A stretch of DNA of 14,856 nucleotides from a virus (Duplodnaviria > Heunggongvirae > Uroviricota > Caudoviricetes). The translations under genes and the position numbers were made by a program. Location: IMG/VR virus record IMGVR_UViG_2778261223_000017; one strand, written 5' to 3'. The notes under the pieces are model-generated. The model was not told where the DNA came from and made no database searches. It saw only the letters and a program-made list of their open reading frames with translations. The first letter of the stretch is position 1. The number at the start of each line of letters is the position of its first letter. Of the stretch, positions 78 to 14,856 are shown one piece after another.

Positions 78-142
78 GGAACGTTACCTGAGCAAGCTGA
101 AAAAATGTTTATGGAGTATGTGAAGAAAGGTTCTTAATTTAC

Positions 143-168
143 AACAAAGGCGGTTATCCCGCCTTTTA
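143..168. terminator. Stem-loop (aaaggcgg / ccgccttt) with flanking T/A runs, likely terminator downstream of the 171-920 gene
   Basis: Perfect 8-bp inverted repeat with a 5-nt loop seen directly, located just past the stop of the minus-strand gene. Confidence 0.5.
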
Positions 169-170
169 TA

Positions 171-920
171 TTACTTGTCCTTTGATGTCGATTGAGACTC
201 ATATATTGTCTCTACGTCATCTATTAGTTTATTAATACCCCACAATCCAGTGTCTTTATAAAAATCACTTTCTTCAATTGCTTTTAATAAATCGGCAAAA
301 TCTTCTTGCGTGGAAATTCTTTTCTTTTTTGCTTTATATATATCGACAATTACTTTTATGCCGTGATACAGATTCACTCTGGCACTCTCAATCTCTCTCT
401 TCTTCTCTTCAATTGCAGACAATAATTTATATTGATCTTCTGTTTGCTTTTCTAGACTTAAAAGCTTGCTCTCTTTTTGCTTCAAGTTGATCTGCAAATC
501 TTTTATTCTTGCCCTCTCTTCTAAATCAAACTCATAGTCAATGTATCTAATTCTTGCATAGTTCCTGCCTGTTGCTTTTGATATACACATTGTTATATAA
601 GGCATTACCACTGACGCAGTGGTTCCATATATAAATGGCATAACAAAATGAGCCACAAACGGAGATACAATGATGGGGCCAACATAAGGAAAGTGATATT
701 TCTCACCAACCCATACTATAGACAATGTTGTATATATATCGTACTTTGATCTAAATAATATAATAATATCCTGCCAGTTAACGACAAAAAAAGAAACCAC
801 AACATATGCAAACAATTTATTAAATAACTTGTCTCTTATGGCTTCTTCGATTGTGTTCCTGACTGTGACATTTTCATCTTTATTTTCTAATGATGAATCT
901 TTGCTCATATAAAAATTCAA
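171..920 (-). CDS. Hypothetical membrane protein: hydrophobic N-terminal half (two to three predicted TM segments), charged coiled-coil-like C-terminal half
   Basis: Long ORF (249 aa) in a visibly AT-rich segment with Lys/Ile/Tyr-rich codon usage unlike its neighbours. Hydrophobic stretches LFAYVVVSFFVV and IIVSPFVAHFVMPFIYGTTASVVMPYI; C-terminal KE-rich heptad-like region. No recognisable catalytic motif. A weak AGAAGG sits upstream of the ATG at 920; an alternative start is at 908. Confidence 0.65.
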   Translation of the reverse strand: MNFYMSKDSSLENKDENVTVRNTIEEAIRDKLFNKLFAYVVVSFFVVNWQDIIILFRSKYDIYTTLSIVWVGEKYHFPYVGPIIVSPFVAHFVMPFIYGTTASVVMPYITMCISKATGRNYARIRYIDYEFDLEERARIKDLQINLKQKESKLLSLEKQTEDQYKLLSAIEEKKREIESARVNLYHGIKVIVDIYKAKKKRISTQEDFADLLKAIEESDFYKDTGLWGINKLIDDVETIYESQSTSKDK

Positions 921-945
921 ACCTTCTTATCTTTATTTTTGGTGA

Positions 946-964
946 AGGCGGTCTTCCAGACCGC
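946..964. other. Intercistronic perfect hairpin (ggcggtct-tcc-agaccgcc) between the HTH gene stop and the membrane-protein gene start
   Basis: 8-bp perfect inverted repeat with 3-nt loop seen directly. It is not followed by a U-run on either strand, so it is more likely an RNA processing or stability element than a terminator. Confidence 0.35.
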
Positions 965-969
965 CAAAC

Positions 970-1329
970 TCAAACACCAACCAGGCTTTCAAGAGGAATG
1001 CCAAACTGGGAATGTAAACGACGAATCATAGGTAACGTCAAATTTCGCGTGCCATTAAGCACTTCGTAAACACGGTTTGACTTACCAATCGCCGGTTCCA
1101 GATCCTTCACGGTCAGCCCTTGCTGTTCCATGCGGAACTTAATGGCCTCAATAGGTGATGGTGGTTGAATTGGGTAATGTTTCTTCTCGTACTCCTCAAT
1201 GAGAAGACTCATAACCTCAAAGAAATCAGCTTCCGGAGTATTCATTTCCGGTTCGTTATCGAACATCGGTTCGACCGCACGCAGTGCGGCCTCATAATCT
1301 TGTTCTGTACGGATAGGTTTAATGTTCAT
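970..1329 (-). CDS. HTH-XRE family protein resembling HigA-type antitoxins (C-terminal helix-turn-helix)
   Basis: 119-aa ORF. The C-terminal segment LTVKDLEPAIGKSNRVYEVLNGTRNLTLPMIRRLHSQFGIPLESL resembles the HTH region of E. coli HigA-family antitoxins as I recall them; the N-terminal IKPIRTEQDYEAAL is typical of that family. Not verified by search. Confidence 0.6.
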   Translation of the reverse strand: MNIKPIRTEQDYEAALRAVEPMFDNEPEMNTPEADFFEVMSLLIEEYEKKHYPIQPPSPIEAIKFRMEQQGLTVKDLEPAIGKSNRVYEVLNGTRNLTLPMIRRLHSQFGIPLESLVGV

Positions 1330-1341
1330 TAATTACAAAGG

Positions 1342-1370
1342 AAAGCCCACTTGCTAAGTGGGCTTTTTGT
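1342..1370. terminator. Hairpin aaagcccactt / aagtgggcttt followed by TTTTT; bidirectional-looking terminator between higA and the downstream HTH gene
   Basis: Inverted repeat and T-run seen directly. Confidence 0.5.
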
Positions 1371-1385
1371 ATGTGTTTTACTATA

Positions 1386-1724
1386 TCAGGCTGCTTTTTT
1401 ATTCAGGTTACGCTGAGAAATAAATTTTTCAGCAGTATTGATACGACTTAACTCTTCCTGAACGCGCATATCATTTTCGACTTCCCACAGATCTACTGCG
1501 GTCTGAAGATTAATCCAAAAATCTACAGAAGTATCGAATGCTTTTGCCAGGCGATATGCCATATCCATCGTTAGCTTACGATTATTATTAACAAGAGCAC
1601 TTACGGTGTTACGATGAACATGAAGTATTTCTGCTAACTCGTTGATCTTCAGCTCTAACGGCTCCAGGTATTCGTACAGCAGGATATCACCTACGGTCGT
1701 CGGTTTTCTGGTTGCCTGTTTCAT
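1386..1724 (-). CDS. higA: HigA antitoxin (HTH, VapI/COG3093-like)
   Basis: 112-aa ORF directly downstream of the higB-like gene on the same strand. The motif TVGDILLYEYLEPLELKINELAEILHVHRNTVSALVNNNRKLTMDMAYRLAKAFDTSVDFWINLQ matches the HigA/VapI antidote HTH family by recall. Confidence 0.8.
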   Translation of the reverse strand: MKQATRKPTTVGDILLYEYLEPLELKINELAEILHVHRNTVSALVNNNRKLTMDMAYRLAKAFDTSVDFWINLQTAVDLWEVENDMRVQEELSRINTAEKFISQRNLNKKAA

Positions 1725-1794
1725 TTTTTGCCCTTACTAGCGTGCGTATTAAGTGGACTCTGGTCAGAACCCGGTCCGTAACCGGGTATCTGTT

Positions 1795-2097
1795 TTAGTA
1801 TTTGTGAGGGTCGAGATACAAGTCCTCGGCCTTTCCGTTAACCCACTTAAAAATTAACCTATATTGCTTATTCACCCTTACTGATGAATAGCCATTTAGC
1901 TTCCCTGACAGTTCCTCATACCGATTACCTGGTGGTGATCTTAAATCCTTACAGGTAGTTGCGGCATTGATAATGTCCAACTTCCGTGACAATGTCATAT
2001 GAATATCAGGAGGTATCTTTCTATGTGGTGTTGAAAATTCAAAAAAATCATCAAGCCACGCATCCCTGAAATCCTTTATGTTAATTTTTTTGGTCAT
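1795..2097 (-). CDS. higB: HigB toxin (plasmid maintenance killer protein, RelE/ParE superfamily)
   Basis: 100-aa ORF. KDFRDAW...LRSPPGNRYEELSGKLNGYSSVRVNKQYRLIFKWVNGKAEDLYLDPHKY matches the HigB/killer-protein family pattern by recall. Toxin-first order with higA downstream. Confidence 0.8.
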   Translation of the reverse strand: MTKKINIKDFRDAWLDDFFEFSTPHRKIPPDIHMTLSRKLDIINAATTCKDLRSPPGNRYEELSGKLNGYSSVRVNKQYRLIFKWVNGKAEDLYLDPHKY

Positions 2098-2142
2098 TAG
2101 TCATTTGATCCTCCGTGATGATTACCGAATGCCATAACTATA

Positions 2143-2179
2143 GCGCACCGTTGCACTGTGCGCAAGTGCATTTTATGAA
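2143..2179. promoter_or_regulatory. Divergent promoter/operator region between higB and the four-gene operon
   Basis: Inverted repeat GCGCAC-N8-GTGCGC overlapping a TTGCAC / 17 bp / TATGAA promoter-like arrangement on the + strand. All read by eye; function inferred. Confidence 0.3.
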
Positions 2180-2259
2180 TTCCCCCTCCTTCATCCAAAA
2201 TCACAATCTCCCGAAAATCTTCCTTTCGATACCTGACAGATCGACCTTTGAGGATGCTT

Positions 2260-3051
2260 ATGGGCCGTTTTGACGAATGGTTTGCTGACGATGCAAACCT
2301 GGCAAGTAAGGAGTCAGAACATGACAGCACGCAGAGAGAAACGCCAGCGCCGATTGAAGTGAATGCAGGAGGCGCGCCGGAACATGGCAATACCGGTTCG
2401 GATTCATTCAGCATTCTGGAAGAGCAACCCGCCGCCAAAGCTGATAGCCATGATAATTTTGCTGATAGCAACGGTGGCCTTACTCCGGATGCTGGCGAAT
2501 CAGATATAGCCATACTTCCACCTTCCCTGGCTGGCAGAGAATCAACTCCACAGCTAAAAGCACGCTATAACGGGCATAAAGCCTTTAACGACCAAATCCG
2601 CGCAGACTGGATGCTGATTATTGAATCCAGCCCAGACGCGTTTCAGGCTCTCTTATATCGACCAGATGTTGGCACATATGGGGTAGTCAGCGACGAAACA
2701 GGAGAAGAGTCATTCACTGAACTGGATAACAACCAACGCGAACTGACTTACCAGGAACCTGAAATCGTTTATGTGCTGGATAACCCTGACGGGCGTGACT
2801 CTTTCCATGCGATTGACGCAGACGGTGAGCAGGATGGCTTAACCGATGATGTTCTGATTCTGCGTATTGCAGCAAATAACGTCCCCGTCGGCTCAATTCT
2901 TGAATGGAATGAAGAGATGGTAAACGGCGTAGCGCGCCGCTGGTGGTACGTGCACCGTATTTTTAGCTACGGCACACAGCATGTTGGTTCGCTTTACTAC
3001 TGCATACCTGCCAGGAATTTTGATACGACTCAAAACGGAGTGATCGAATGA
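2260..3051 (+). CDS. Hypothetical protein, first gene of four-gene operon; acidic low-complexity N-terminal region and structured C-terminal domain
   Basis: ORF with GAGGA Shine-Dalgarno about 5 nt before the ATG at 2260 (the track's 2248 start is a TTG). N-terminal about 110 aa are D/E/S/G/P-rich; the C-terminus contains RRWWYVHRIFSYGTQHVGSLYYCIPARNFD. The stop overlaps the next start (ATGA at 3048-3051). No family recognised. Confidence 0.6.
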   Translation: MGRFDEWFADDANLASKESEHDSTQRETPAPIEVNAGGAPEHGNTGSDSFSILEEQPAAKADSHDNFADSNGGLTPDAGESDIAILPPSLAGRESTPQLKARYNGHKAFNDQIRADWMLIIESSPDAFQALLYRPDVGTYGVVSDETGEESFTELDNNQRELTYQEPEIVYVLDNPDGRDSFHAIDADGEQDGLTDDVLILRIAANNVPVGSILEWNEEMVNGVARRWWYVHRIFSYGTQHVGSLYYCIPARNFDTTQNGVIE

Positions 3052-3815
3052 CTTCAAATAAAACCCTCCTGGCGCGAACAGGTGAATGGCAAACCTCACG
3101 CACAGGAAAATTCCAGACCACGGGCTTTGAAAACGTGGATAACGCGTTTGCGACGCTAATCAGCAACATTTTTTCTGATATCTTACTGGTGGCCCCCGCG
3201 CCGGAAGAAAAACGCTTTGCGTCATTCCTGAATCGTCCACCAGCAGAGCGTGTTTATGTGGCCCGTTTCGACAATGCGATCGAGTTTCTTAAAGCAGTTC
3301 GTCGCGCAAATGCCGGGCAAGGGAGAAAACCTGAAAACCAGAACATTAACCGGGATGCTCTCCCCCTGGTCAATATCTCACGCACTATGGATATCAATTA
3401 TATCAACGATGATCAGCAGATTGACCGCAAAAAAGTAGCCAGTTTTTGCGAACCGGATACCGGAATGCCTTTAGCAGAACTGGAATACACCCAGGCTATT
3501 CTGACGTATGACGTTACGTTAATGGCAACTGATAAAGCGACCATGAGTCTGATGTGTAATTCGCTGGGCGCACGGCTTCGCCTGATGACAGGTACACAAT
3601 TTGAAGCAACCACTCACCTTGTTCGTGTCCCGGTCCCGCTGATTTGCTCGATACAGGATGCCAAAGAAGTCGGCTTTACGGATGTTTCAGCACCAATTGG
3701 AGAAGAGCGTATTTATGCCACACAAGCGCCGATAAGTGTGATTGCAGACGTGATCACAGCATGGGAGTTGGACGCAAAACGTATTATTACCGAAACCTCG
3801 ATATCTATGGGGTGA
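3048..3815 (+). CDS. Hypothetical protein, second gene of four-gene operon
   Basis: 255-aa ORF translationally coupled to the upstream gene (ATGA overlap). No family recognised. Confidence 0.6.
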   Translation: MTSNKTLLARTGEWQTSRTGKFQTTGFENVDNAFATLISNIFSDILLVAPAPEEKRFASFLNRPPAERVYVARFDNAIEFLKAVRRANAGQGRKPENQNINRDALPLVNISRTMDINYINDDQQIDRKKVASFCEPDTGMPLAELEYTQAILTYDVTLMATDKATMSLMCNSLGARLRLMTGTQFEATTHLVRVPVPLICSIQDAKEVGFTDVSAPIGEERIYATQAPISVIADVITAWELDAKRIITETSISMG

Positions 3816-3818
3816 TAA

Positions 3819-4799
3819 GTGGCCCAGGAGTTACAACAATATTTTCTACAGTCAGTGCTCATTAACGATAACAAAGTGCCACGAGACTGGATTTTTACCG
3901 CAGTATATGTAGAAAAAACCAGCCTCAAAGCCCCTTTGCTAAAACTGGAAATTCATGACGCTACCGGCACCGTAATTGATGACTGGAAAGCCAAATACGG
4001 TGCATCGCTGGTGGCTGAAATGGGCGATCCAAACGGTAATGCAGGCACTTTTAAAACAGATTTCTTTGTTACGTCTGCAATGCTGGCTGGTGATGTTGTT
4101 ACCGTTATTGCTGTCAGTGAAGACGTGCGCAGGTTTAAGATCCCCTCCCCGCGCACAAATTTACATACCAACAAAACACCAGACGCTATATTCAAGGCAT
4201 ATTCCGGCAAGCTTAAAATTACCAGCAGCGTGCTAAAACGCGCAGTTACATATCATCTGAATGCCGGTGACAAACCGTCAAAAATGCTTTCGGAGATAGC
4301 GCGAGACAAAGGTGCATTATGTTGGGTATGCCGGGGGGAATTTAACTTTTACACCCTGGCTGATCTGATGAAGCAAACGCCATCATTTACCTACGAGGGG
4401 AATAACCCTAAAGCAGAATACACTTTGTCCAAAATGCGCCTACTCCAACAGGAACATGCGACAACAGCAAAGAATCAATATCGTTTTGTTGGGTATTCCA
4501 TGACCGATGGCTACGTCGAATATGGCGATAGCTCACTCCCAGTGCGTTATATATCCGACTCTGATATGGAAACTCTTCGCAATATGCAGCTGTCTCTCGT
4601 CCCCAAAATGGATATAGAAGTCGCAGGCAATCCTGATATAAAACCGGGGATGGTGATAGAGATTATCGTATACCGCTATGACCAGGAAAACCGCATTGAT
4701 GAATCAATGCCCCGTAAGCTGATAGTAAAAAATGTTGCGCACTTTGAAGACCGCGTAGGCTACACAACACGAATGATATTGGGAGTGCCGAACAAATGA
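3819..4799 (+). CDS. Putative phage baseplate hub protein (late control gene D / gp27-like)
   Basis: 326-aa ORF with a GTG start 4 nt after the previous stop. Segments KMLSEIARDKGALCWVCRGEFNF and GNPDIKPGMVIEIIVYRYDQENRIDESMPRKLIVKNVAHFEDRVGYTTRMIL resemble conserved regions of P2 gpD-family hub proteins by recall. Immediately followed by, and coupled to, a spike-like gene. Confidence 0.5.
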   Translation: MAQELQQYFLQSVLINDNKVPRDWIFTAVYVEKTSLKAPLLKLEIHDATGTVIDDWKAKYGASLVAEMGDPNGNAGTFKTDFFVTSAMLAGDVVTVIAVSEDVRRFKIPSPRTNLHTNKTPDAIFKAYSGKLKITSSVLKRAVTYHLNAGDKPSKMLSEIARDKGALCWVCRGEFNFYTLADLMKQTPSFTYEGNNPKAEYTLSKMRLLQQEHATTAKNQYRFVGYSMTDGYVEYGDSSLPVRYISDSDMETLRNMQLSLVPKMDIEVAGNPDIKPGMVIEIIVYRYDQENRIDESMPRKLIVKNVAHFEDRVGYTTRMILGVPNK

Positions 4800-5449
4800 A
4801 GCGTAGAGCGCAAATTGTTGGAACTGTGCACCCGGCAGGGCTTATGCGTGCTCAAGTCCGTGTTTTACCTGACTGGAATGGCGTTCCTGATGACGATCTA
4901 CCCTGGGCGGAATACCTGTTACCCATCGGAAACGCTTTTGTACCCACAGTCAAAGGTGACCTGGTCTGGGTAGAGTTTCCTTATTTAGATGTTAACGGTC
5001 GAATAGACACCAGACGCCCAATGATAGTTGGTGCCGCTCAGGATGCACCGGGAGGAATTCCAAACGTTGCACCAGAAGCATCTGGCAAAGGCAACGGCTG
5101 GACGCCGCCGGAAGTAGATGGAGCACCTCCCCGCCCCCAAATCTCAGCAACGAAAGACTTCGTTATTCACCGCAACAATATTCTTGAAGTACGAACTGCT
5201 GGTGGCGGCTATGAAATTGCCAATACGGCAGCAGGCGCAAGGATTGGCATGAATGAGTCCGGGCAGATATATATCATTGGTCCGGCTGATGTAATCGTGA
5301 ATGCAGGAGGGAGTGTTAACGTCAAATCAGCCAACAACATCAATGTTAATGGGGAAAATATAGCTGTCACCGCTAACGGAGACATAGCTTTCAAGGCAGG
5401 AGGAACCTTTCAGGCCACTGCTGGCAACTTCGATTTCAAGAAAGGATAG
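4796..5449 (+). CDS. Putative baseplate central spike (gpV / gp5-like OB-fold N-terminus with C-terminal beta-helix repeats)
   Basis: 217-aa ORF. N-terminal IVGTVHPAGLMRAQVRVLPDW...PWAEYLLP...VKGDLVWVEF fits the gp5/VgrG/gpV OB-fold signature. The C-terminus is Gly/Asn/Val/Ala-rich with short periodic repeats (VIVNAGGSVNVKSANNINVNGENIAVTANGDIAFKAGG) typical of a spike beta-helix. ATGA coupling at 4796-4799. Confidence 0.65.
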   Translation: MKRRAQIVGTVHPAGLMRAQVRVLPDWNGVPDDDLPWAEYLLPIGNAFVPTVKGDLVWVEFPYLDVNGRIDTRRPMIVGAAQDAPGGIPNVAPEASGKGNGWTPPEVDGAPPRPQISATKDFVIHRNNILEVRTAGGGYEIANTAAGARIGMNESGQIYIIGPADVIVNAGGSVNVKSANNINVNGENIAVTANGDIAFKAGGTFQATAGNFDFKKG

Positions 5450-5457
5450 AAAATGCA

Positions 5458-5502
5458 CCCATTTGTGTTAGATAATTAATATGTATTTTCTAACACAAAT
5501 GG
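5458..5502. repeat. Perfect 14-bp inverted repeat (ccatttgtgttaga ... tctaacacaaatgg) with 17-bp AT-rich spacer
   Basis: Seen directly between the spike gene stop (5449) and the rdgC-like start (5509). Candidate operator or terminator-like hairpin. Confidence 0.5.
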
Positions 5503-5508
5503 TGATAC

Positions 5509-6414
5509 ATGAGATCAGTCGCTTTCAAAAATATCTTCATCTATCGTCTTTCACGCGAAGTTAGCTGGGATACTGCAGAAGTAAATGCAGCCCTTAGCAA
5601 GTTTGTGTTTACCCCATGCGGTTCTCAGGATATGGCTAAAGCTGGTTGGACCTCCGTTCTTGGTGACAACCTCACCCATGAATACCAGGGTTTTCTTCTG
5701 ATACAGCATAAACGAGAGGAAAAAATCCTACCTTCTCAAGTGCTCAAAGAAGAGTTACAGAAAAAAATCCTGACACTTGAAGAAGAGCAAGACAGAAAGC
5801 TGAAGAAGACCGAAAAAGATTCGCTGAAGGATGAAGTGCTTCACTCTCTTCTTCCTCGTGCTTTCACGAGAAAATCACTCGCCAAAATCCTGATCGACCG
5901 CAGAAACCATCTGGTATTCGTTGAGGCAAGCAGCGCCAAAAAGGCAGAGGACCAGCTGGCTTTATTGCGAAAATCGCTCGGCAGCCTGCCTGTCATTCCA
6001 TTCACACCACGCGAACCGCTGGAAATTACAATGACCGAGTGGTTTAAAAACGGCTTCCCTGCCGGATTTACAGCAGGTGAAGACGCCAAATTAAAGGGTC
6101 TGCTCGATAATGGTGGTGCCGTTCGCTGCAACAAAGTTGATCTACAGTCCGACGAGATTATGTCTCACATTGAGGCGGGGAAAGTAGCTACGACCGTTGC
6201 AATTAACTGGATGGACCGCGCGTCGTTCAGAGTCAACGATGATATGAGTATCAAAGCCCTGACATTCTGTGATGATCTCTATGACCAGAACGACGATATC
6301 GACCGGGAGGATGTAGCACAACGATTTGATGCTGATTTCGTGCTCTTTACGGGCGAATTATCTGCACTGTTTAACGCGCTGGTGGAGGCCATTGGCGGTG
6401 AAGCAGAACGATAA
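5509..6414 (+). CDS. rdgC: RdgC-like recombination-associated DNA-binding protein (divergent homolog)
   Basis: 301-aa ORF. N-terminus [10 protein letters not shown]...[14 protein letters not shown] and central [23 protein letters not shown]...[26 protein letters not shown] closely parallel E. coli RdgC (about 303 aa) as I recall it, though clearly diverged elsewhere. Confidence 0.8.
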
Positions 6415-6430
6415 TAACCGACCGCTTGTT

Positions 6431-7078
6431 GTGAGTCTTTGTGATTTTACGGGGGCAATGGTTGCCCCCTGGCTGGAATACGGTGTCGATGCCGCTATCG
6501 TCGATCCACAGCACTTATCGACCAGTGACGAGCGGATGCAATCAGGTGCCGTTCTGACGCGTATTAGTGCGATCATCGATAGCGATGAAGTATACGCTTT
6601 TCTCCGTAAGAATTTGCAGCGCATCGTGTTTCTGGCCGGGTTCCCACCGTGTACTGACCTGGCTGTTTCCGGCGCGCGCTGGTTTTCGGACAAGGCTAAT
6701 AAAGATCCGGTTTTCCAGTTCAAAGCAATGCAGGTTGTCTGGCAGTGTTATGACATTGCAAAGATGATCGGTTGTCCGTACATGATTGAAAATCCGGTCA
6801 GCAAAATATCGACATTCTGGCGTAAGCCAGATCACATCTTTCACCCTTACTTCTTCACTGCATATTGTCAGGAAGATAACTACACCAAAAAAACATGCCT
6901 CTGGAGCGGCCAGGGCTTTGTCATGCCTGATGCCCTAATGGACGAATCATTAGGCAAGCCAGATAACAGAATCCATGCCGCGCCACCAGGGCCTGACAGG
7001 GCTAATTTTCGAAGTGCTACTCCACATGGATTCGCAAAGGCAGTTTTCGAAGCGAATAAGGGGGTGCTCTATGAGTAA
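6431..7078 (+). CDS. Putative short DNA (cytosine-5) methyltransferase-like protein
   Basis: Contains a motif-I-like LCDFTG, a motif-IV-like GFPPCTDLAVSG (Pro-Cys) and a motif-VI-like IENP. The start is uncertain: the ORF is open back to 6326 and overlaps the rdgC-like gene; GTG 6431 was chosen because it lies just after the rdgC stop and precedes motif I. About 215 aa is short for a C5-methyltransferase, so the call is tentative. Confidence 0.45.
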   Translation: MSLCDFTGAMVAPWLEYGVDAAIVDPQHLSTSDERMQSGAVLTRISAIIDSDEVYAFLRKNLQRIVFLAGFPPCTDLAVSGARWFSDKANKDPVFQFKAMQVVWQCYDIAKMIGCPYMIENPVSKISTFWRKPDHIFHPYFFTAYCQEDNYTKKTCLWSGQGFVMPDALMDESLGKPDNRIHAAPPGPDRANFRSATPHGFAKAVFEANKGVLYE

Positions 7079-7976
7079 ATCTATAGCAAGCATAGCCATA
7101 GAAAAACAGGATACGATGGCTGAAATTAGCTATATGCGCACCATTCGGACTCCGGATGAATATGAGCGTCCGATATTCAAATGGGTAGGTGGTAAATTCT
7201 CAGAATTGCCTACAGTGCTTGAGCATCTACCACACGGTAAGCGGTTAATAGAACCATTCGTTGGTGGCGGTTCCGTATTTACGAATGCAGGATTTCGCCA
7301 CAACCTGCTTAATGATATTAACGGTGACCTGATTAACTTCTATCAGACATTGCAGCGAGAAGGACATTCGCTCGTCACGCTGTCATATAGTTTTTTCCAA
7401 AATTACAACAACGCTGACGCTTACCTCGAAGTGCGTGAGGCATTTAACAGAGGAAAGTATGACCAGCTACATCATGCTGCCGCCTTTTTGTACCTTAATC
7501 GGCACTGTTTTAATGGCGTAACGCGGTACAACCAAAATGGCGAGTTCAACGTGGGGTATGGCAAATACAAAGCACCCTACTTCCCACACGCAGAGATGGA
7601 GGCATTTTTGGCTGATGACGTACTCAAAAACACGTCCTTTGTATCAGGTGACTTTGCTGGCGTCATCGAGGCGGCTGGTGAAGGCGATGTGATTTTTTGC
7701 GATCCGCCGTATGAACCGCTGCCGGATACAGAAGGGTTTACCAGTTATTCAGGAAATAGCTTCCGTTTCGACGAACAGAAACGGCTGGTATCTCTATTGG
7801 TGGAAGCCCACCAGCGCGGCGCTAAGGTAGTGATAACAAATAGTGGTGCGCCAAACATCCGTGAACTATATGAAGGAAACGGGTTTAAAGTACATCATAT
7901 GGCAGCCAGACGGTCGGTGTCCTGCAAGGCGTCAACACGTGTAGTTGCTAACGATATAATTGCAATAATGAAGTAA
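7071..7976 (+). CDS. dam: Dam-like DNA adenine (N6) methyltransferase
   Basis: FKWVGGK, EPFVGGGSVF, LYLNRHCFNGVTRYNQNGEFNVGYGKYKAPYFP and the catalytic DPPY motif parallel E. coli Dam. AAGGGGG Shine-Dalgarno before the ATG at 7071; the start overlaps the preceding gene's stop by 8 nt. Confidence 0.85.
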   Translation: MSKSIASIAIEKQDTMAEISYMRTIRTPDEYERPIFKWVGGKFSELPTVLEHLPHGKRLIEPFVGGGSVFTNAGFRHNLLNDINGDLINFYQTLQREGHSLVTLSYSFFQNYNNADAYLEVREAFNRGKYDQLHHAAAFLYLNRHCFNGVTRYNQNGEFNVGYGKYKAPYFPHAEMEAFLADDVLKNTSFVSGDFAGVIEAAGEGDVIFCDPPYEPLPDTEGFTSYSGNSFRFDEQKRLVSLLVEAHQRGAKVVITNSGAPNIRELYEGNGFKVHHMAARRSVSCKASTRVVANDIIAIMK

Positions 7977-8008
7977 AAAACGCCGCAGTAGCGGCGTTTA
8001 CTTTTTTA
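7977..8008. terminator. Bidirectional rho-independent terminator (acgccgc-agta-gcggcgt with A-run before and T-run after)
   Basis: Seen directly between the convergent dam-like and glnS genes. Confidence 0.7.
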
Positions 8009-8024
8009 TGTGGCGAAATACCTA

Positions 8025-9686
8025 TTAACCTAACTTCGCCCAGGTATCACGCAGCCCAACGGTGCGGTTAAATACCGGTTTTTCCGCCGTAGAATGGCGG
8101 CTGTCGAGGCAGAAATAACCTTCACGCTCAAACTGGAATGCTTTACCCGCTACCGCGTCTTTCAGAGACGGTTCAGCAAAGCCCTGTTTGATCACCAGCG
8201 ATTCCGGGTTAATCACCGACAGGAAATCATCCGCAGCACCTGGGTTCGGCACGCTGAACAGACGGTCATACAAACGGATTTCAACCGGCAGCGCATGTGC
8301 CGCGCTCACCCAGTGAATAACACCTTTGACTTTACGACCATCTGCCGGATCTTTGCTTAAGGTATCGGCGTCATAAGTACAGAAGATGGTGGTGATATTA
8401 CCTTCGGCATCTTTCTCGACGCGTTCTGCCTTAATCACATAAGCATTACGCAGACGCACTTCTTTACCCAGCACCAGACGTTTGTACTGCTTGTTAGCTT
8501 CTTCGCGGAAATCGGCGCGATCAATCCAAATCTCACCGCTAAACGGCACCTGACGGCTCCCCATTTCCGGTTTGTTCGGATGGTTCGGCATGGTGACCAT
8601 TTCGCCTTCGCCCTGATAGTTTTCGATAACCAGTTTCACCGGATCGATAACCGCCATTGCGCGCGGCGCATTTTCGTTGAGATCTTCACGGATGCAGGAT
8701 TCCAGCGACGCCATCTCAATGGTGTTGTCCTGCTTGGTCACGCCGATGCGTTTGCAGAACTCACGAATAGAAGCAGCAGTGTAACCACGACGACGCAGAC
8801 CGGAAATGGTCGGCATACGCGGGTCATCCCAGCCTTCAACGTGCTTGTCGGTCACCAGCAGGTTCAGCTTACGCTTGGACATCACAGTGTATTCCAGATT
8901 CAGGCGCGAGAATTCGTACTGGCGCGGGTGAACAGGAATGGTGATGTTGTCCAGTACCCAGTCATACAGACGACGGTTGTCCTGGAACTCAAGCGTACAC
9001 AGAGAGTGCGTAATACCTTCCAGCGCATCGCTGATGCAGTGGGTGAAGTCGTACATCGGGTAGATGCACCACTTGTTGCCAGTCTGGTGGTGTTCAGCAA
9101 ACTTAATGCGGTACAGCACCGGGTCGCGCATCACGATAAACGGCGAAGCCATATCGATTTTCGCACGCAGGCAGGCTTTACCTTCTTCAAAACCACCGGC
9201 ACGCATTTTTTCGAACAGCGCCAGGTTCTCTTCAACGCTGCGATCGCGGTACGGGCTATTTTTACCCGGCTGCGTCAGGGTGCCGCGGTATTCGCGGATC
9301 TGTTCCGGCGTCAGTTCGTCAACATACGCCAGGCCTTTGTTGATCAGTTCAACAGCATAGGCATGGAGTTTGTCAAAATAATCGGAGGAGTAACGGATGT
9401 TGCCAGACCAGTGAAAACCTAACCATTCAACGTCGTTTTTAATCGACTCGACGTACTCGATATCTTCTTTTACCGGGTTAGTGTCGTCGAAACGCAGGTT
9501 GCACTGGCCTTTATAGTCCTGGGCGATCCCGAAGTTCAGGCAGATAGATTTCGCATGGCCAATATGCAGATAGCCATTCGGCTCCGGCGGGAAACGGGTG
9601 TGTACTGTGGTGTGCTTACCACTGGCCAGATCTTCATCGATGATCTGACGAATAAAGTTAGTCGGGCGGGCTTCTGCCTCACTCAT
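8025..9686 (-). CDS. glnS: Glutaminyl-tRNA synthetase
   Basis: 553-aa ORF. N-terminus [47 protein letters not shown] (class I HIGH motif) and a VMSKR-type KMSKS motif; near-identical to E. coli GlnS as recalled. Confidence 0.97.
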
Positions 9687-9875
9687 TGTGGATTCCTCAA
9701 AGCGTAAACAACGTATAACAGCGTATGATCTTATAAGCCGAATAGGCTGACAACCACTAGTTGATTAGAAATTGCTTTCTATCGTTATTTCAATAATGAG
9801 CTTTTTCATGAAGCCCACTTTTGCGCATAAGTAAATTAATGACAAATGGTACACAATTGGAACCAAAAAGGATGT

Positions 9876-9913
9876 AAAGGTGCACCAAATTAGTGGTGTA
9901 TTGGTGCACCTTT
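9876..9913. promoter_or_regulatory. Perfect 13-bp palindrome arms (aaaggtgcaccaa ... ttggtgcaccttt) with 12-bp spacer in the glnS-upstream / partition-downstream intergenic region
   Basis: Seen directly. Could be an operator, a centromere-like site or a terminator hairpin for the upstream partition operon. Confidence 0.4.
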
Positions 9914-9954
9914 GGTTCAAGACTTTTTAAGTTCTAAAACCAACCTGAAAGACT

Positions 9955-10242
9955 TTATTTTGCTTCCTCAGACTCCGCTAACATGAGGATAGCATGGCGG
10001 ATCATATTCAATTTGCTGCGATTATGCTTTTTACTTAACGCATCAAGTACTTGGTACTCGTATTCATTGAAACCAACACGAATAGATTTAAAATCACGTG
10101 GAGCGTCCTTATCGAGCACTTTGTTGTCTTCTGGTTGCTCACCCGGCACCAAATCAGCCTTACTGGCAAAATCCTCAATTCGGCGTTCAAGATCAGGGTC
10201 TTTTACTTCGGGGGCTTTTACCGATTTACGAGGCTTAATCAC
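9955..10242 (-). CDS. Small partition-operon DNA-binding protein (ParG/ParB-like, probable ribbon-helix-helix)
   Basis: 95-aa basic ORF directly downstream of and overlapping (8 nt) the ParA-like gene. Disordered N-terminus, then C-terminal KSIRVGFNEYEYQVLDALSKKHNRSKLNMIRHAILMLAE consistent with a beta-strand plus helices RHH fold. Confidence 0.55.
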   Translation of the reverse strand: MIKPRKSVKAPEVKDPDLERRIEDFASKADLVPGEQPEDNKVLDKDAPRDFKSIRVGFNEYEYQVLDALSKKHNRSKLNMIRHAILMLAESEEAK

Positions 10243-10876
10243 TTAATAACTCCTTAACCAACATCTGGATTTCACCTTTAGCTTTCCCGTTGTCCATCTC
10301 AACAACGCCCTTCCCTTCAGCCATGCAATCGCGGTAAACCTTACGATCACGAATGATGGTTTTCAGCAACTTCAGTTGCGGATATTCAGCCAGGTACTCT
10401 TTGGCCTCATTGGTTTCATTCACAACCGGATTGGATGGGGCCATTGTTAAGACTGCGAACGCCTTGATGCTAGGATTAGGCATCAGGTCCAAAGCCTCTT
10501 CAAACACTTCAACAAAGTGTGCCAGCGTGTCTAAATCTGGTTGAGATGGTCTGAATGGGACCAACACAATATCTGCAGCGGTTATGCCTGTACGCATCTC
10601 TTTGCTATCGCGCCCGGCTGTATCAACAACTACAAATTCATAACGCTTATCCAGATCGAGAAGTGTTTCTCGAATATTACCAAACTTCTGGACACAATGA
10701 ATTACAGGAGAAACCTCTGCCGTGTTACGGTCAGCTGCCCAGCGGGCAGCTGTTCCTTGCTTGTCTGCATCTAGTAACACTACATCCTTATTTTCGCGGG
10801 CAAGCTCCGCACAGATGTTTACGCTTGTGGTTGATTTTCCACAGCCACCTTTTTGGCTGACTACCAATATAATCAT
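10235..10876 (-). CDS. parA: ParA/ParF-type partition ATPase (deviant Walker A)
   Basis: VVSQKGGCGKSTTSVNICAEL Walker A box and VVVDTAGRD Walker B-like motif. Start chosen at ATG 10876 (GAGGA Shine-Dalgarno 5 nt upstream) rather than the track's TTG at 10906. Confidence 0.85.
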   Translation of the reverse strand: MIILVVSQKGGCGKSTTSVNICAELARENKDVVLLDADKQGTAARWAADRNTAEVSPVIHCVQKFGNIRETLLDLDKRYEFVVVDTAGRDSKEMRTGITAADIVLVPFRPSQPDLDTLAHFVEVFEEALDLMPNPSIKAFAVLTMAPSNPVVNETNEAKEYLAEYPQLKLLKTIIRDRKVYRDCMAEGKGVVEMDNGKAKGEIQMLVKELLSD

Positions 10877-11114
10877 ATCCGTTCCTCGGTGTGATTTTGG
10901 TATCAAAACGGTTCCAGATAAGAGCCTTTTTGATGCGGGACAGGCTCTATAATGGAGTCATGAATGTTTGGCAAAGTATAACATCAATCAGACCAAATAC
11001 ACCTTATATTGCATCCTATTTAACACGAAAGCAGCCCCAAATTGGAACCAGATACAAAATTGCACCATAACAGCACCTAACTGGTGCCAGATTAACACTA
11101 ATTAGACACCATTA

Positions 11115-11146
11115 AGGCATAAAAAAGGCTGCAATTTGCAGCCTTA
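11115..11146 (-). terminator. Rho-independent terminator after parR (aaggctgca-loop-tgcagcctt followed by a U-run on the minus strand)
   Basis: Seen directly. Confidence 0.65.
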
Positions 11147-11163
11147 AACCAGCACATCTTCTG

Positions 11164-11502
11164 TCAATCAGGTAGAGAGTCAGCCAGATTGCGCGCCGAC
11201 GCGCTTTTGGCAACAAATTGCTCCTTCACTGGCTCAATGGAGGCAGGGCGCTCCTCAACCGCAGCTGGTAGTTCCAAGAAGGATGCCAGCATTTTTCGGA
11301 TCAGCTCCGGGTTATTGTCTTCGGTCAGCAGGGAAGCCAGTAATCCTGGAAGCCTGCTATCGACTTCTCCCAGCGCAAGCCCTGCCAACAATGCAGTTCT
11401 TGCCATATCGCTATGTTTTTTTATCTTCTCGCTCGCCGCCTTTTCATTGGCATAAGCCTCTGGGCGAAGATAAATCATCACTTTCTTACGTTCCTGAGAC
11501 AT
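11164..11502 (-). CDS. parR: ParR/StbB-like centromere-binding protein
   Basis: Small ORF immediately downstream of parM. ARTALLAGLALG resembles the R1 ParR motif NRAALTAGLALY by recall. Start at ATG 11502 (ACGAGG 7 nt upstream); 11508 is an alternative. Confidence 0.65.
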   Translation of the reverse strand: MSQERKKVMIYLRPEAYANEKAASEKIKKHSDMARTALLAGLALGEVDSRLPGLLASLLTEDNNPELIRKMLASFLELPAAVEERPASIEPVKEQFVAKSASARNLADSLPD

Positions 11503-11514
11503 GGACATACCTCG

Positions 11515-12471
11515 TTAACCGATTGCTTTCAGGCCATGAACAAGAGCAAGTTGCGGGTCATCCGCCACGAAGAAACGGTCATCACGAATATTAACTTGCT
11601 CGCGAATTGCATCTGCCACCAGCGGTGCGCCACCACCGATCACCATGACATGCGTATATCCTTTAAAGTCGCCAATCACATCAAGAACGCGGGTACGCAG
11701 ACGGTCAATGCTTGCGGCAATGGCCTTTTTCACATCACCAATCGCTAATGGGTCATTGATATTGTCGTTCAGATAATCTTCATCGTGGCGGTTAATAATG
11801 AGCTGATCAACATTGTAATTTGACGTTTCGGTATTGGCCCTTGCAAGTGCTTGCCTTACTTCCCTGGTGACCAGTGATACACCAAGATTCGAATCGCCAA
11901 AAACACGGGAAACTGCCGTCATTTGTCCAGCGACCATTGAAACATCAAGGGTAGTTCCACCCAAATCGACGATAAGAACAGAGTGGGCAGGGTTCAGATT
12001 GTCGCACAGGCTAATTCCCGCCGGGATAGACTCCGGGCGTACCGTAACTTTCTTAATAGTGAATACATTGCCTTTATTCAGCGTGACGGGGCGCATAAGA
12101 CTGGCTTTCTTGCGCTCGATGTTATCGAGATTGTATTGCGCGTCGTCGTCGTAAAACTCTGCCAGAGGCAGCGTGACCACAATTTCTACTTCCTGCGGCT
12201 CAATACCGCTTGTCAGCAGGGCATGGTGAACAGCCAGGACGTTAAGCGGGCTGTATTGCCATTCCACATTATTCGTCGGCAGAACATCTGGCGATATCAA
12301 GTCGTATGAATACTTTTCGTCGTCAATGACATAGTTAAACGGCTTGCCCGCACCAAATGTTGCTGACCATCCGCGCTTAAAGCTGTTAGGGCTGATGTGA
12401 GTGCGAGTTTCCCCGTCGTGCTCCCACAGCATTTTGATATTGGTTGAACCATCATCGATAAAAATGCGCAT
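11515..12471 (-). CDS. parM: ParM/StbA actin-like partition ATPase
   Basis: MRIFIDDGSTNIKM..., HISPNSFKRGW, AVHHALLTSG, NIERKKA, ESIPAG, LIVDLGGTTLD, GDSNLGVSLVT and GYTHVMVIGGGA parallel R1 ParM motif by motif. Start at ATG 12471 (GGAG upstream); the track start 12495 is 8 codons longer. Confidence 0.9.
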   Translation of the reverse strand: MRIFIDDGSTNIKMLWEHDGETRTHISPNSFKRGWSATFGAGKPFNYVIDDEKYSYDLISPDVLPTNNVEWQYSPLNVLAVHHALLTSGIEPQEVEIVVTLPLAEFYDDDAQYNLDNIERKKASLMRPVTLNKGNVFTIKKVTVRPESIPAGISLCDNLNPAHSVLIVDLGGTTLDVSMVAGQMTAVSRVFGDSNLGVSLVTREVRQALARANTETSNYNVDQLIINRHDEDYLNDNINDPLAIGDVKKAIAASIDRLRTRVLDVIGDFKGYTHVMVIGGGAPLVADAIREQVNIRDDRFFVADDPQLALVHGLKAIG

Positions 12472-12495
12472 CTTCTTGCTCCACTTCTGAGACAC

Positions 12496-12660
12496 ATTTG
12501 AGAATCAAAATGTAATTTTAAAAGAGAAGCCCCCAAAAATCCACACCAAACGAGATAAAAAAGGGCGCTTGTTGAGTTTATTTTGAGAATATCTTAATCA
12601 CCCACCGAATGATGGTCTGATAGTGAGATTTATTTGAGAGCGAATTGAGAATACAAAAAT
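12496..12660. repeat. Candidate parC-like centromere: repeated TTGAGA(A/G)-containing elements upstream of parM
   Basis: TTGAGAAT at about 12499 and 12582, TTGAGAG at about 12634, TTGAGAAT at about 12649; two longer related copies gagtttattttgagaat and gagatttatttgagagc. Seen directly; the role is inferred from position upstream of parMR. Confidence 0.4.
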
Positions 12661-12737
12661 ATTCCGAAATTTAACTCTCCGTTTGAATGACGAAATAACA
12701 AAGTGATGACAATAGAAGGATAACCAGGAGGTGAAGA

Positions 12738-13022
12738 ATGAGCGCAATAGCCACCAGCGACACCCTTTGTTCTGGTCACGGAGGATTTCCGCCGCGACTG
12801 GTAGCTGAAACCGTTCCCTGGTTCACCGTTAACGGTAAGCCAGTTGTTGTAGATGGTGCCATGTTTCCCAGTCACACTGACGGTAACAGTGCACATCCAG
12901 GGGCAGCTGTATCGACGCGAGCATGGTTTTCGATAGGTGGAAAGGGAGTTGTCTGTGTAGGCGATCTGCTTTCTTGTGGTTCTGTTATCGCCAACGGCGA
13001 GGATATTTTTCAGGTTGCATAA
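12738..13022 (+). CDS. PAAR-like domain protein (spike-tip protein)
   Basis: 94-aa ORF with strong AGGAGGTG Shine-Dalgarno. Repeated motif pattern FTVNGKPVVVDGAMF and SIGGKGVVCVGDLLSCGSVIANG with conserved Cys/His/Gly positions typical of PAAR proteins. Confidence 0.7.
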   Translation: MSAIATSDTLCSGHGGFPPRLVAETVPWFTVNGKPVVVDGAMFPSHTDGNSAHPGAAVSTRAWFSIGGKGVVCVGDLLSCGSVIANGEDIFQVA

Positions 13023-13828
13023 TGCTTGATTCAATAGGTGAAGTTAAAGCCTTCAAAATTCTGTCAGATGCCGGTATCTCTACACCAGAATCTATAACCA
13101 TAAGCCGAGCAGCTTCTGTAAAAGCCTCATCGCTCGCCAGCGCCATACAGGGAATAGTTCACGCCGATAAAACCTATCCTGATTCTGTTTCGGCCTGGAC
13201 TACTCAATTGCTTGGCTTTTCTGAACAGCTCAATGAGGCCAGCAAAGCGTCTTCATTACTGGCTGATTCTCTTTCCCCATACACCAAGCCATCAGAGCTG
13301 TTACAGATGAAGATTGGCTGGGAATGCTACGCAAAAGGTAACGAGCTGACCCCCATACCTGCTTTCGCCCTTGTTGAGGGAATGGGGAATGTTTCCATTC
13401 CGCAATCTCTAACGGACGCATTGACGGCGCTAAAACTTGATGCTCTGAAAACCGCCATGAACGCCATTAACGCAAAAATTGAAGCTGCCGGAAGTGCTGG
13501 TGGTGGTGATAGCAATGGTGGACAGGGTGGTGCTGGGGGCGCTCAGGCTCCAGTCATTACTCAGGATGAAATTGATGCTTTACGGGAAGCAGTGACAGCC
13601 GCCGAAGCTTTACTCTCCGAAATTAACTCAGCAAGTGAGAGTGTCGTAGCCCTTACAGGTCGCATTAAAACGTCAACCACTCAGGCAACCAAAGGTTTAG
13701 AGAACGCTGTCGCCATCACGTTAACTGGCTCTCTACTGGATGATGCAGTAATGAGTCCGGCAATCAGTTTAATCATGCCACAAGGCGTTATCGATGCGCT
13801 CCAAAAGAACACCAAAAAGGAACCATAG
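13022..13828 (+). CDS. Hypothetical protein coupled to the PAAR gene; Ala/Ser/Thr/Leu-rich with an internal Gly-rich linker
   Basis: Start ATG overlaps the PAAR stop (TAATG at 13020-13024). Predicted helical, no TM segment, linker AGSAGGGDSNGGQGGAGGAQAP. No family recognised. Confidence 0.6.
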   Translation: MLDSIGEVKAFKILSDAGISTPESITISRAASVKASSLASAIQGIVHADKTYPDSVSAWTTQLLGFSEQLNEASKASSLLADSLSPYTKPSELLQMKIGWECYAKGNELTPIPAFALVEGMGNVSIPQSLTDALTALKLDALKTAMNAINAKIEAAGSAGGGDSNGGQGGAGGAQAPVITQDEIDALREAVTAAEALLSEINSASESVVALTGRIKTSTTQATKGLENAVAITLTGSLLDDAVMSPAISLIMPQGVIDALQKNTKKEP

Positions 13829-13883
13829 CAACACCACTTAGGCACACAAAAGGATGTAATTTGGTACATGTTTAACACCGAAA

Positions 13884-14357
13884 ATGAACCTGAAGAGGAT
13901 GGTTTTGAAAAAGATAATTTTGATTGTAATTGCGCTTTTAGCCATTTCTGGAATTTACCGAACAACGACGGCAGTTATCGAACACATCAGGTATGTCCGA
14001 TCGCTTGAAGACTCAAAATCACAACTGGAAAGCACGAACAACACGCTTTCTACCGCATTACAGTTAAGTGAGAACGCTCGCTCAGCCATGCTGACCGAAA
14101 ACGAAAGAATTAAAGCACTGGAAAAGGAGTACCAGCGCAAAACAGCAGAACTGAATGCCAACCTAATCAAACAACGAGAGGAAAGCCAGAATGAAATCAC
14201 TCGCCTTGAAAATGCGTTACGCCGTGCTGGGATTAACGATGTGCGTGTGCCTGATGACGTTATCAGGATGCAGCGGGAACGGGCAAAAGCCATCAACCAG
14301 CGTGCCAGTGAAAATTACCGTAGAAGCCACCAGCAAGCCGCAGGCAAATCTGATTGA
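13884..14357 (+). CDS. Rz-like inner-membrane spanin (i-spanin): N-terminal TM anchor plus periplasmic coiled coil
   Basis: N-terminal hydrophobic segment KKIILIVIALLAISGIY followed by a charged heptad-rich region. NALRRAGINDVRV resembles the Rz C-terminal region of lambda by recall. An overlapping +1-frame lipoprotein gene is embedded at its 3' end. Confidence 0.6.
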   Translation: MNLKRMVLKKIILIVIALLAISGIYRTTTAVIEHIRYVRSLEDSKSQLESTNNTLSTALQLSENARSAMLTENERIKALEKEYQRKTAELNANLIKQREESQNEITRLENALRRAGINDVRVPDDVIRMQRERAKAINQRASENYRRSHQQAAGKSD

Positions 14358-14523
14358 TTACTCCCCTTGTTTAGTGCCAGAAGACACGCCAGTGCTGTTA
14401 AACAAGTATCCGACATACGCTGAACAGTTATTCAGCACGATCGACGAATGCAACCAACGAAACGCACTGAATAACCAAAGAAACAGGGAGATTTGGGAAG
14501 GGAAGGGGGATCAAGGCTCCTGA
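14191..14523 (+). CDS. Rz1-like outer-membrane lipoprotein spanin (o-spanin), overlapping the i-spanin gene in another frame
   Basis: GAGGAAAG Shine-Dalgarno before the ATG at 14191. Signal peptide with lipobox LSGC (MKSLALKMRYAVLGLTMCVCLMTLSGC), Pro-containing mature region, and two further Cys residues. The gene begins inside the Rz-like gene and extends past it, the overlapped spanin architecture. Confidence 0.55.
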   Translation: MKSLALKMRYAVLGLTMCVCLMTLSGCSGNGQKPSTSVPVKITVEATSKPQANLIDYSPCLVPEDTPVLLNKYPTYAEQLFSTIDECNQRNALNNQRNREIWEGKGDQGS

Positions 14524-14779
14524 AGCCAGATGTCCTGGCTGTCAGCTTCTTCGAAACCGTGACAGACGTTAAAGTCACTCAAACGATACTGACGCTGACG
14601 GCCCCTATTTCGCTCATGCCAATGCATATATCCACCAGCAAATGCCAGCGGACAATCGCTATAGTCTATGTAACCAATACCATTCCCCAAACGTGCTTCG
14701 CGCGCACCAGCTTTCCAGGACAGTAGAAAAGAGTCACGATCCGCCAGCATAACAACAAAATCGTCCGGATCTCCGATAC

Positions 14780-14856
14780 TGAACCGCCCCGGAAATCCTG
14801 GAGACTAAACTCCCTGAGAAAGAGGTAAACAGGATGACTAAAAATACTCGTTTTTC
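14780..14856 (+). mobile_element. Left end of an IS3-family insertion sequence (terminal inverted repeat TGAACCGCCCCGG...) including the start of the transposase orfA
   Basis: Terminal repeat is inverted relative to 41-77. An ATG at 14834 preceded by GAGG opens a frame reading MTKNTRF..., which matches the N-terminus of an IS3-family OrfA as I recall it. Truncated by the window end. Confidence 0.65.
14834..14856 (+). CDS. IS3-family transposase OrfA, N-terminal fragment (partial, runs off window)
   Basis: ATG with Shine-Dalgarno inside the IS left end; only 7 codons visible. Confidence 0.5.

Follow-up and report, generated by a model that had tools for sequence, protein, structure and literature searches.

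Two partition systems of different types may lie side by side on one and the same replicon. In pB171, a virulence plasmid of Escherichia coli, par1 is a type II system, parMRC, and par2 is a type Ib system, parABC. The parC site of another type II system, that of plasmid R1, consists of 10 repeats of 11 bp laid out around a promoter. The type Ib system of TP228 uses the ParF ATPase with ParG, a protein that recognises ACTC-type boxes, placed upstream only. Repeat arrays located both upstream and downstream are the published layout of the type Ib systems of pB171, pSM19035 and pESBL (PMC7602700). The combination of a type I system using a ribbon-helix-helix (RHH) protein with a type II system was retrieved from 971 plasmids of PLSDB in a 2026 survey, which called it previously reported (PMC13245405). 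Here we analyse a locus of this general kind in a stretch of 14,856 nucleotides from a virus of the Caudoviricetes (IMG/VR record IMGVR_UViG_2778261223_000017), named the window in what follows. Judging by its predicted products and sites, the region is made of two complete, tandem partition cassettes in the same orientation, ParM with ParR and ParA with a small partner. We hold it to be quite probable that these cassettes, independent and complete, are the module by which a D6-like (P1-related) phage-plasmid natively ensures its maintenance as a plasmid. The features of this double par locus are as follows, in the order in which they are met on the minus strand:

12482-12660, minus strand: parC-like centromere/operator of the type II cassette, made of (T/A)CTCA iterons in 11-bp phase.
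12515-12543, minus strand: putative parMR promoter, with a -35 hexamer TGGATT (12543-12538), a 17-nt spacer and a -10 hexamer TAAAAT (12520-12515).
11515-12471, minus strand: parM, coding for an actin-like segregation ATPase of 318 amino acids (aa).
11164-11502, minus strand: parR, coding for an adaptor of 112 aa which, by its family, would bind parC.
11125-11145, minus strand: intrinsic terminator at the end of the parMR operon, retrieved in a terminator scan, a 9-bp stem AAGGCTGCA/TGCAGCCTT followed by TTTTTT.
10990-11113, minus strand: array upstream of parA, the putative centromere/operator of the type Ib cassette, with some 11 degenerate units of the TGGTRCC type in 11-bp phase.
10975-10985, minus strand: putative parA promoter, an extended -10 element TGTTATACT proposed from its conservation.
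10888-10919, minus strand: three further phased units, TGGAACC, TGATACC and TCACACC, between the putative promoter and the ribosome-binding site of parA.
10235-10876, minus strand: parA, the product of which, 213 aa long, is a small partition ATPase of the Walker type (type Ib).
9955-10242, minus strand: gene of a 95-aa RHH protein, with a GTG start and an AAGGAG ribosome-binding site.
9845-9921, minus strand: downstream array of the type Ib cassette, about seven phased units ending in ACC or TCC.

The four par genes are all intact, on the same strand, within 9955-12660. One reads in succession a control region of 266 nt, which also serves a divergent PAAR gene, then parM, parR, the terminator, a spacer of about 250 nt, parA, the 95-aa open reading frame (ORF), another spacer of about 180 nt and finally glnS. 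Between the stop codon of parM and parR there are 12 nt, and the distance between the two cassettes is 287 nt (11164 to 10876). The stem and T-run of the terminator are invariant in all five aligned relatives. ParM combines the Pfam domain StbA_N (E 9.5e-70) and the ParM C-terminal domain (E 1.2e-54), and its residues 1-318 match the structures of R1 ParM (E 1e-110): this is the actin-fold ATPase that characterises type II systems. The small adaptor gene that should accompany it is found immediately 3' of parM. Its product, ParR, belongs to the Pfam family Plasmid_stab_B (E 3.4e-11) and to PHROG 8671, 'partition protein', and it matches the structure of ParR from pB171 (2jd3, E 1.1e-6).

The centromere-like region of this first cassette is found upstream of parM, where seven (T/A)CTCA units start, on the minus strand, at 12650, 12639, 12628, 12588, 12577, 12503 and 12492. 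Within each group the spacing is exactly 11 bp, and a degenerate TCTCG is present at about 12555. Eleven is the top lag of autocorrelation in the region (none of 2000 shuffled sequences reached its value), and the composite motif TCTCAA-N6-CTCA, expected 0.93 times in the window, is found there four times, always within 12488-12650. When the region is aligned with diverged relatives the units make conserved islands. In one of these relatives, L005 (positions 1497-1790, against 12482-12514 of the window), there is one exact extra unit of 11 bp, TCTCAAATGTG, a change in copy number. The putative parMR promoter sits between the second and third groups of iterons; its TGGATT and TAAAAT hexamers, unlike their flanks, do not vary among five diverged sequences, and it is from this conservation that we infer their role.

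The ATPase of the second cassette matches the CbiA, MipZ, VirC1 and AAA_31 families of Pfam, as well as PHROG 164, 'ParA-like'. Its best solved relative is ParF of TP228, a protein of 206 aa, the structures of which (4dzz and 5u1g) align with it over its full length (E 1.5e-18). It also covers the whole of the NCBIfam profile ParA_partition, with a score of 162.8 bits that remains below the 180-bit equivalog cutoff. Its deviant Walker A motif, KGGCGKST at residues 9-16, its small size, in the range of about 200-230 aa, and the lack of an N-terminal helix-turn-helix (HTH) are those of type Ib enzymes.

As expected of a type Ib centromere, repeat arrays are found upstream and downstream of the parA operon. 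The upstream array comprises units such as TGGTGTC, TGGCACC, AGGTGCT, TGGTGCA and TGGTTCC. A lag of 11 dominates its autocorrelation, followed by a lag of 22, and the lag-11 value was reached in 2 of 2000 shuffles. Its hexamers are located at positions 14, 36, 47 and 58, those at 209 and 220 falling among the three units next to parA. Equivalent 11-bp ladders are kept in the relatives L005, L006 and L008, even where the spacer is only 58-59% identical to that of the window. The putative parA promoter stands out in this variable context: the string TTG(A/C)TG(T/C)TATACT, which reads TTGATGTTATACT in the window, is kept almost unchanged, with differences at two positions in L008. The downstream array displays a perfect inverted repeat of 13 bp, AAAGGTGCACCAA / TTGGTGCACCTTT, at 9876-9913. 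Its lag-11 autocorrelation is 0.44, a value that none of 2000 shuffles attained, and lag 22 again comes second; L005 and L008, too, have equivalent ladders, of GGTACC/GGCATC, on the downstream side of this gene's counterpart. Four of the 13 GGTGCA sites of the window fall in this array. The total itself, against 7.9 expected, is not significant alone; the repeat signal lies in the clustering and 11-bp phasing of the units. Coding regions used as controls gave no 11-bp periodicity of this kind.

The identity of the 95-aa protein required a longer enquiry. Its start overlaps the stop of parA by 8 nt, which indicates that the two genes are translationally coupled. The protein corresponds to orf61 of phage D6, where it is labelled 'hypothetical'. 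Taken alone it matches nothing in Pfam, in NCBIfam or among the sequences of the PDB, but it matches a PHROG family of 'Arc-like repressor' proteins (E 1.8e-4). A word-indexed search for homologues retrieved close relatives only (76-97% identity). An exhaustive phmmer search gave 101 representative relatives, of 55-141 aa with the exception of one outlier of 1491 aa, and 64 of these were used for an alignment of remote homologues. Conserved features are an N-terminal MxKxR, with a nearly invariant Arg5, a motif IExFAxxAD, and a C-terminal block KxIxVPFNEYEYxxLExxAxxxGRSKLNxIRxAI. Matches to Pfam families of the RHH clan (NikA-like, RHH_1, DUF6290, TraY and others) appear in 17-19 of the 64 homologues, and the best PDB matches of the profile are proteins of the CopG family, at sub-threshold values (E 0.15-0.4). 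A first AlphaFold model, derived from a shallow alignment (pLDDT 60), gave only noise with Foldseek and was superseded by a model based on the 64 sequences. The latter has a pLDDT of 89, reaching 92-99 over residues 50-90, and consists of an extended segment followed by helices 60-73 and 77-94. Foldseek matched it almost exclusively to RHH proteins (CopA, CopG, TacA, Arc, ParD, AmrZ, NikR, ParG), with target TM-scores of 0.70-0.84 and root-mean-square deviations of 1.0-1.7 Å over 40-43 residues. In its fold and its position, this is the small protein with a C-terminal RHH domain, encoded directly 3' of parA, that goes with type Ib ATPases. Homologues are found directly 3' of parA also in pACICU1 of Acinetobacter (beside repM) and in a Serratia plasmid. 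The fold as predicted, the coupling with parA and the recurrence of this gene order elsewhere make the 95-aa ORF most likely the RHH centromere-binding partner of ParA, not a copy-number regulator.

The original prediction, made from the letters alone, had proposed two different partition systems adjacent in the same orientation, one an actin-type parM-parR pair with iteron-like repeats, the other a Walker-type parA with a small RHH partner. The gene order, the Pfam and structure matches of ParM and ParR with the phased TCTCA units upstream, and the ParF match with its KGGCGKST motif bear this out, the RHH assignment being backed by PHROG, by the Pfam matches of homologues and by AlphaFold and Foldseek. 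It had overlooked the two repeat arrays that belong to the parA cassette, one of which (about 9845-9921) lies just outside the segment 9955-12660 that it delimited.

Is the module maintained? The ratio of non-synonymous to synonymous substitution rates (dN/dS) was computed between the window and three diverged D6-like lineages, and retained where dS was unsaturated. It is 0.02-0.05 for parM, 0.08-0.15 for parR, about 0.03 for parA and 0.07 for the partner gene: all four are under strong purifying selection. None of them has an internal stop in any of the three lineages. The order of the four genes is identical in every D6-like relative fetched, with or without glnS, and in all diverged ones examined the module occupies a constant site, between upfC/PAAR and either dam or glnS. 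Among 123 related plasmids the four genes co-occur in about 118-120: ParA is found at 80% identity or more in about 118, the partner at about 75% or more in about 118, and 120 have DNA matches that span 80% or more of the par region. Neither locus, as far as can be read from the genes themselves, looks like the non-functional remnant that would have spoken against the original prediction, a single plasmid with a frameshifted parA (see below) notwithstanding.

By its sequence, the window derives from a phage-plasmid that is D6-like and related to P1. Several Salmonella plasmids, pYU39_89 (NZ_CP011430) among them, share the par region (9700-12760) at 100% identity, and Escherichia phage D6 shares it at 99.9%. 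Positions 76-14779 make a single colinear match with pYU39_89, at 99.9% identity. The latter is a circular, non-mobilizable plasmid of 88.9 kb, typed rep_cluster_1704. P1-like tail and baseplate genes are found on both flanks of the par region; in the annotation of D6, one side has P1-like baseplate/tail genes, rdgC, two methyltransferases and glnS, the other has homologues of P1 upfC and upfB, with capsid and sheath genes, and a Rep_3-type repA is located more than 10 kb from the par locus. Two features of the surroundings matter for the origin of the locus:

1-77 and 14780-14856, same orientation: termini of an insertion sequence (IS) of the IS3 family (IS1203/IS629-like), exactly 77 nt each.
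8025-9774, minus strand: glnS, a full glutaminyl-tRNA synthetase gene, adjoining the par locus.

In pYU39_89 and other complete relatives there is no IS at either of the junctions that correspond to the ends of the window. With its equal ends of 77 nt, the window probably represents a whole contig of a short-read assembly that broke off at a repeat, and, being bounded in this way, it does not allow one to read the replicon context in the source genome. Positions 8029-9774, that is glnS with 88 nt upstream, are 96.5-97.2% identical to the chromosomal glnS of E. coli, which points to a recently captured host gene. The gene is present in the window, in D6 and in L006, and absent from L005, L008 and L009, where dam comes directly after the par locus. 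Among the matches listed for complete E. coli genomes, the chromosomal ones are restricted to the glnS segment, while those extending beyond glnS or the IS ends are all on plasmids. The direction of the capture beside the par locus is thus, on this evidence, from the host to the phage-plasmid.

How would the module work? By analogy with the known systems, ParR dimers would cover the TCTCA iterons that recur every 11 bp in parC, ahead of parM, and would in so doing also repress the promoter embedded among them. Filaments of ParM-ATP, captured by the ParR/parC complex, would push sister plasmids apart, and the strong terminator would close the operon. The second cassette would operate in the manner of TP228 ParF/ParG and pB171 par2. 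There, the 95-aa RHH protein may bind the 11-bp-phased TGGTRCC-type repeats upstream of parA, autoregulating the operon, and likewise those that follow its own gene. The conserved basic tail at the N-terminus of the protein, with the MxKxR motif, would stimulate the ATPase activity of nucleoid-bound ParA, and the resulting gradient of ParA would space plasmid copies over the nucleoid. Both cassettes would contribute to stabilising the prophage.

A number of observations weigh against this picture, and they are best considered together. A scan of the minus strand of both control regions with the sigma-70 consensus called no promoter; the putative parMR promoter was missed because its -35 is weak, and no -35 was found for that of parA. 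The Foldseek E-values for the partner model are all above 0.1, a consequence of the small size of RHH domains. When aligned by hhalign with ParG (the sequence used having been confirmed identical to that of 1p94), the partner has its whole RHH domain in register, with an E-value of 0.0017 and a probability of only 15.7%. BLASTP and hhalign gave no significant similarity between the partner and the ParB of the pB171-type locus, and no relationship with two other ParA partners. To call the protein ParG-like is, as a consequence, a statement about fold and context, not about homology. Its published annotation, in pYU39_89, is 'cop, putative copy-number control protein'. In NZ_CP031917.1 (locus L012, positions 844-1760), a plasmid otherwise 98.8% identical, parA is frameshifted and has no coding sequence annotation, and the call for parM is shorter too. 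Either this is true decay, in which case the type Ib cassette may not be essential, or the assembly is in error, as long-read indels could bring about. Finally, the searchable literature, outside of which the D6 genome paper (Gilcrease and Casjens, 2018) falls, yielded no experiment on D6 partition.

Some of these points would fit a situation where only one of the cassettes works in partition, the other being redundant, decaying or repurposed, with, for instance, the RHH protein acting as a CopG-like regulator of copy number or transcription and ParA as an accessory. The 'cop' label introduced in the re-annotation of pYU39_89 and the frameshift in NZ_CP031917 agree with it. So does the order of the structural matches of the RHH protein, where the best are the repressors and antitoxins CopA, CopG and Arc, while ParG comes at rank 23. 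There is also the precedent of SCP1, a plasmid with two ParABS systems, only one of which mattered for stability in the laboratory (PMC13245405). Against it stand dN/dS values that do not exceed 0.15 for any of the four genes, in lineages that are saturated at synonymous sites of the parA cassette. The small ORF is, moreover, translationally coupled to parA, and has its homologues directly 3' of parA in the unrelated plasmids examined. The arrays flank the parA operon, in the known type Ib centromere layout (PMC7602700), and the replication gene repA is more than 10 kb away. We deem this explanation quite unlikely. Another proposal, in which the two cassettes form one cross-regulated unit, with the type Ib ParB also repressing the type II promoter and each system influencing the other, has its model in pB171. 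ParB of that plasmid reportedly represses the non-cognate par1 promoter (Ringgaard et al., 2007). In the window, a GGTG-containing stretch within parC, TTGGTGTGGATT, the core of which, TGTGGATT, is invariant, resembles the core of the type Ib repeats, and the two cassettes almost always co-occur. Yet a -35 region of the parMR promoter would account just as well for the conservation of the GGTG stretch, and the cassettes are in tandem, separated by an invariant terminator, without a common control region. A unit of this sort is unlikely in our view; some cross-regulation between the two cassettes of D6-like elements is possible.

Another question is how the two cassettes came to be neighbours. 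The original prediction had inferred a plasmid or phage-plasmid origin, with which the colinearity at 99.9% with circular plasmids of about 89 kb, the near identity with D6 and the P1-like flanking genes fully agree. It had further suggested a cointegrate, or a plasmid fragment captured by a chromosome, and one may extend this to a fragment recently inserted into a phage or to the fusion of two replicons. The window does end in IS3-family termini, a host glnS is inserted beside the locus, and the two cassettes differ in evolutionary depth, since in L006 the type Ib part is 59-82% identical to that of the window when parMR and the flanks are 94-100% identical. However, IS ends of exactly 77 nt each are more consistent with an assembly interrupted at a repeat than with a biological boundary, and the E. 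coli chromosomal matches, among those listed, do not extend beyond the glnS segment. The same gene order is found at the same position of the backbone in every diverged D6-like element examined, whether it possesses glnS or not, and the window is colinear with complete circles. With this constant site, the occurrence of the module in 118-120 of 123 plasmids and purifying selection, the idea of a cointegrate or of a capture is not supported, and recent adjacency appears most improbable.

The locus is also mosaic, as a comparison with L006 makes plain. There, parMR, the PAAR gene, the downstream array and glnS are 94-100% identical to those of the window, while a patch corresponding to 9955-11160 (3083-4285 in L006), with the upstream array, parA and the partner gene, is the part with only 59-82% identity. 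Synonymous divergence follows the same partition: it is saturated for parA, 1.7 for the partner gene and about 0.12 for parM. Recombination thus shapes the region. We had considered that the mosaic cassette was diversifying in its specificity, but this was downgraded: the alleles hardly differ in their RHH domain (residues 50-95) and the repeat cores stay of the same degenerate GGYRYY type, so that a change in centromere specificity is not indicated. It could still be that the type Ib cassette behaves as an exchangeable allele in a constant backbone, the presence of two centromeres letting one of them be swapped or drift without loss of segregation. This is a speculation to which we give little credence. 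Were it true, exchanging the cassette could, for example, be a way to escape partition incompatibility with co-resident plasmids.

Other observations were made along the window. A toxin-antitoxin module with an extra regulator is present in the tail-gene region, on the minus strand (970-2097): the gene of a HigB-like toxin (1795-2097, Pfam E 4e-35) comes first, then that of an HTH antitoxin (1386-1724) and that of a second HTH protein, of the HTH_3 family (970-1329). A 249-aa ORF (171-920, minus strand), without significant Pfam match, lies in a stretch of low GC content (33-36%). Positions 78-729 have no blastn match in D6, and several other relatives match the window only from 736-1148 onwards, which makes this ORF a variable accessory gene. 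At the other end (13884-14523, plus strand), two overlapping ORFs of 157 and 110 aa resemble an embedded pair of i-spanin and o-spanin, with a weak, sub-threshold match to a T7-like o-spanin family (E 0.01). A scan of the whole window with Rfam retrieved no RNA family.

What is to be retained from this analysis? The double par arrangement is real and intact, yet it is of an ordinary kind, already annotated. Published records of D6-like elements label three of the four genes, parM/stbA, parR/stbB and parA, as partition genes. With near-identical published prophages, and a combination of type Ib and type II systems that is known and common, the locus has little significance beyond annotation. 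The refinements are that an RHH centromere-binding partner of ParA is the best reading for the ORF called 'hypothetical' or 'cop', which belongs to a protein family without a Pfam or NCBIfam model, and that coordinates are now available for three centromere-like arrays.

We may now return to the known systems. P1 is related to the source element by its phage backbone, and its type Ia ParABS system has the same role, the maintenance of a low-copy plasmid prophage. The likeness does not extend to the proteins. A P1-type ParABS, with a large ParA that has an N-terminal HTH, an HTH-type ParB and parS, is not present in the window: no gene of an HTH-type ParB was found there, the partner is a 95-aa RHH protein, and ParA, with its 213 aa, is devoid of the N-terminal regulatory domain. 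The annotation of D6 describes its ParA as similar only to the C-terminal third of P1 ParA, and a P1-type ParA structure, 3ez9, makes a marginal and partial match with the ParA of the window (E 0.00098, residues 68-133). The par locus is also remote from repA, while in P1 the two are next to each other. TP228 offers another comparison. Beyond the match between ParA and ParF, the partner resembles ParG in its small size, in the flexible and basic character of its N-terminal half and in the RHH domain at its C-terminus, and ParG is among its fold matches, with the RHH domains aligned in register. The differences are the marginal similarity of the partner sequences, another repeat core, and the possession of two arrays by the type Ib cassette of the window. 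As for R1 ParMRC, ParM is strongly similar, and parC is again located upstream, with 11-bp direct repeats and a putative promoter between repeat groups. The clear iterons are fewer in the window, 7-8 arranged as 3 + 2(3) + 2, their sequence is different, and ParR has more in common with the pB171 type than with that of R1.

The nearest described arrangement is the double par locus of pB171, which we compared through a pB171-type locus of plasmid pWS1933D_83. The same pair of system types, II and Ib, is found side by side on one replicon, which is a defining trait of such double loci, and in both cases the type Ib operon has repeat arrays on its two sides (PMC7602700 for pB171). Identities between the pB171-type proteins and those of the window are 43% for ParM, 42.6% for ParA and 32% for ParR, in this latter case over the N-terminal 79 residues; the partner is without detectable sequence similarity to the pB171-type ParB. 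The repeats are unrelated, TCTCA and GGTRCC in the window against motifs of the ACTCAAT and ATCACA types in the locus of pWS1933D_83. The replicons differ as well, a phage-plasmid here, a conjugative virulence plasmid in the case of pB171. Most of all, the layout is different. In pWS1933D_83, parR-parM is divergent from parA-parB and they share a central region, whereas the window has operons on the same strand, an invariant terminator between them and separate arrays, so that the shared central parC1 flanked by divergent operons, which defines the pB171 locus, is absent. D6-like elements thus provide a tandem, terminator-insulated version of the double par locus, which can be compared with the divergent and cross-talking version of pB171.

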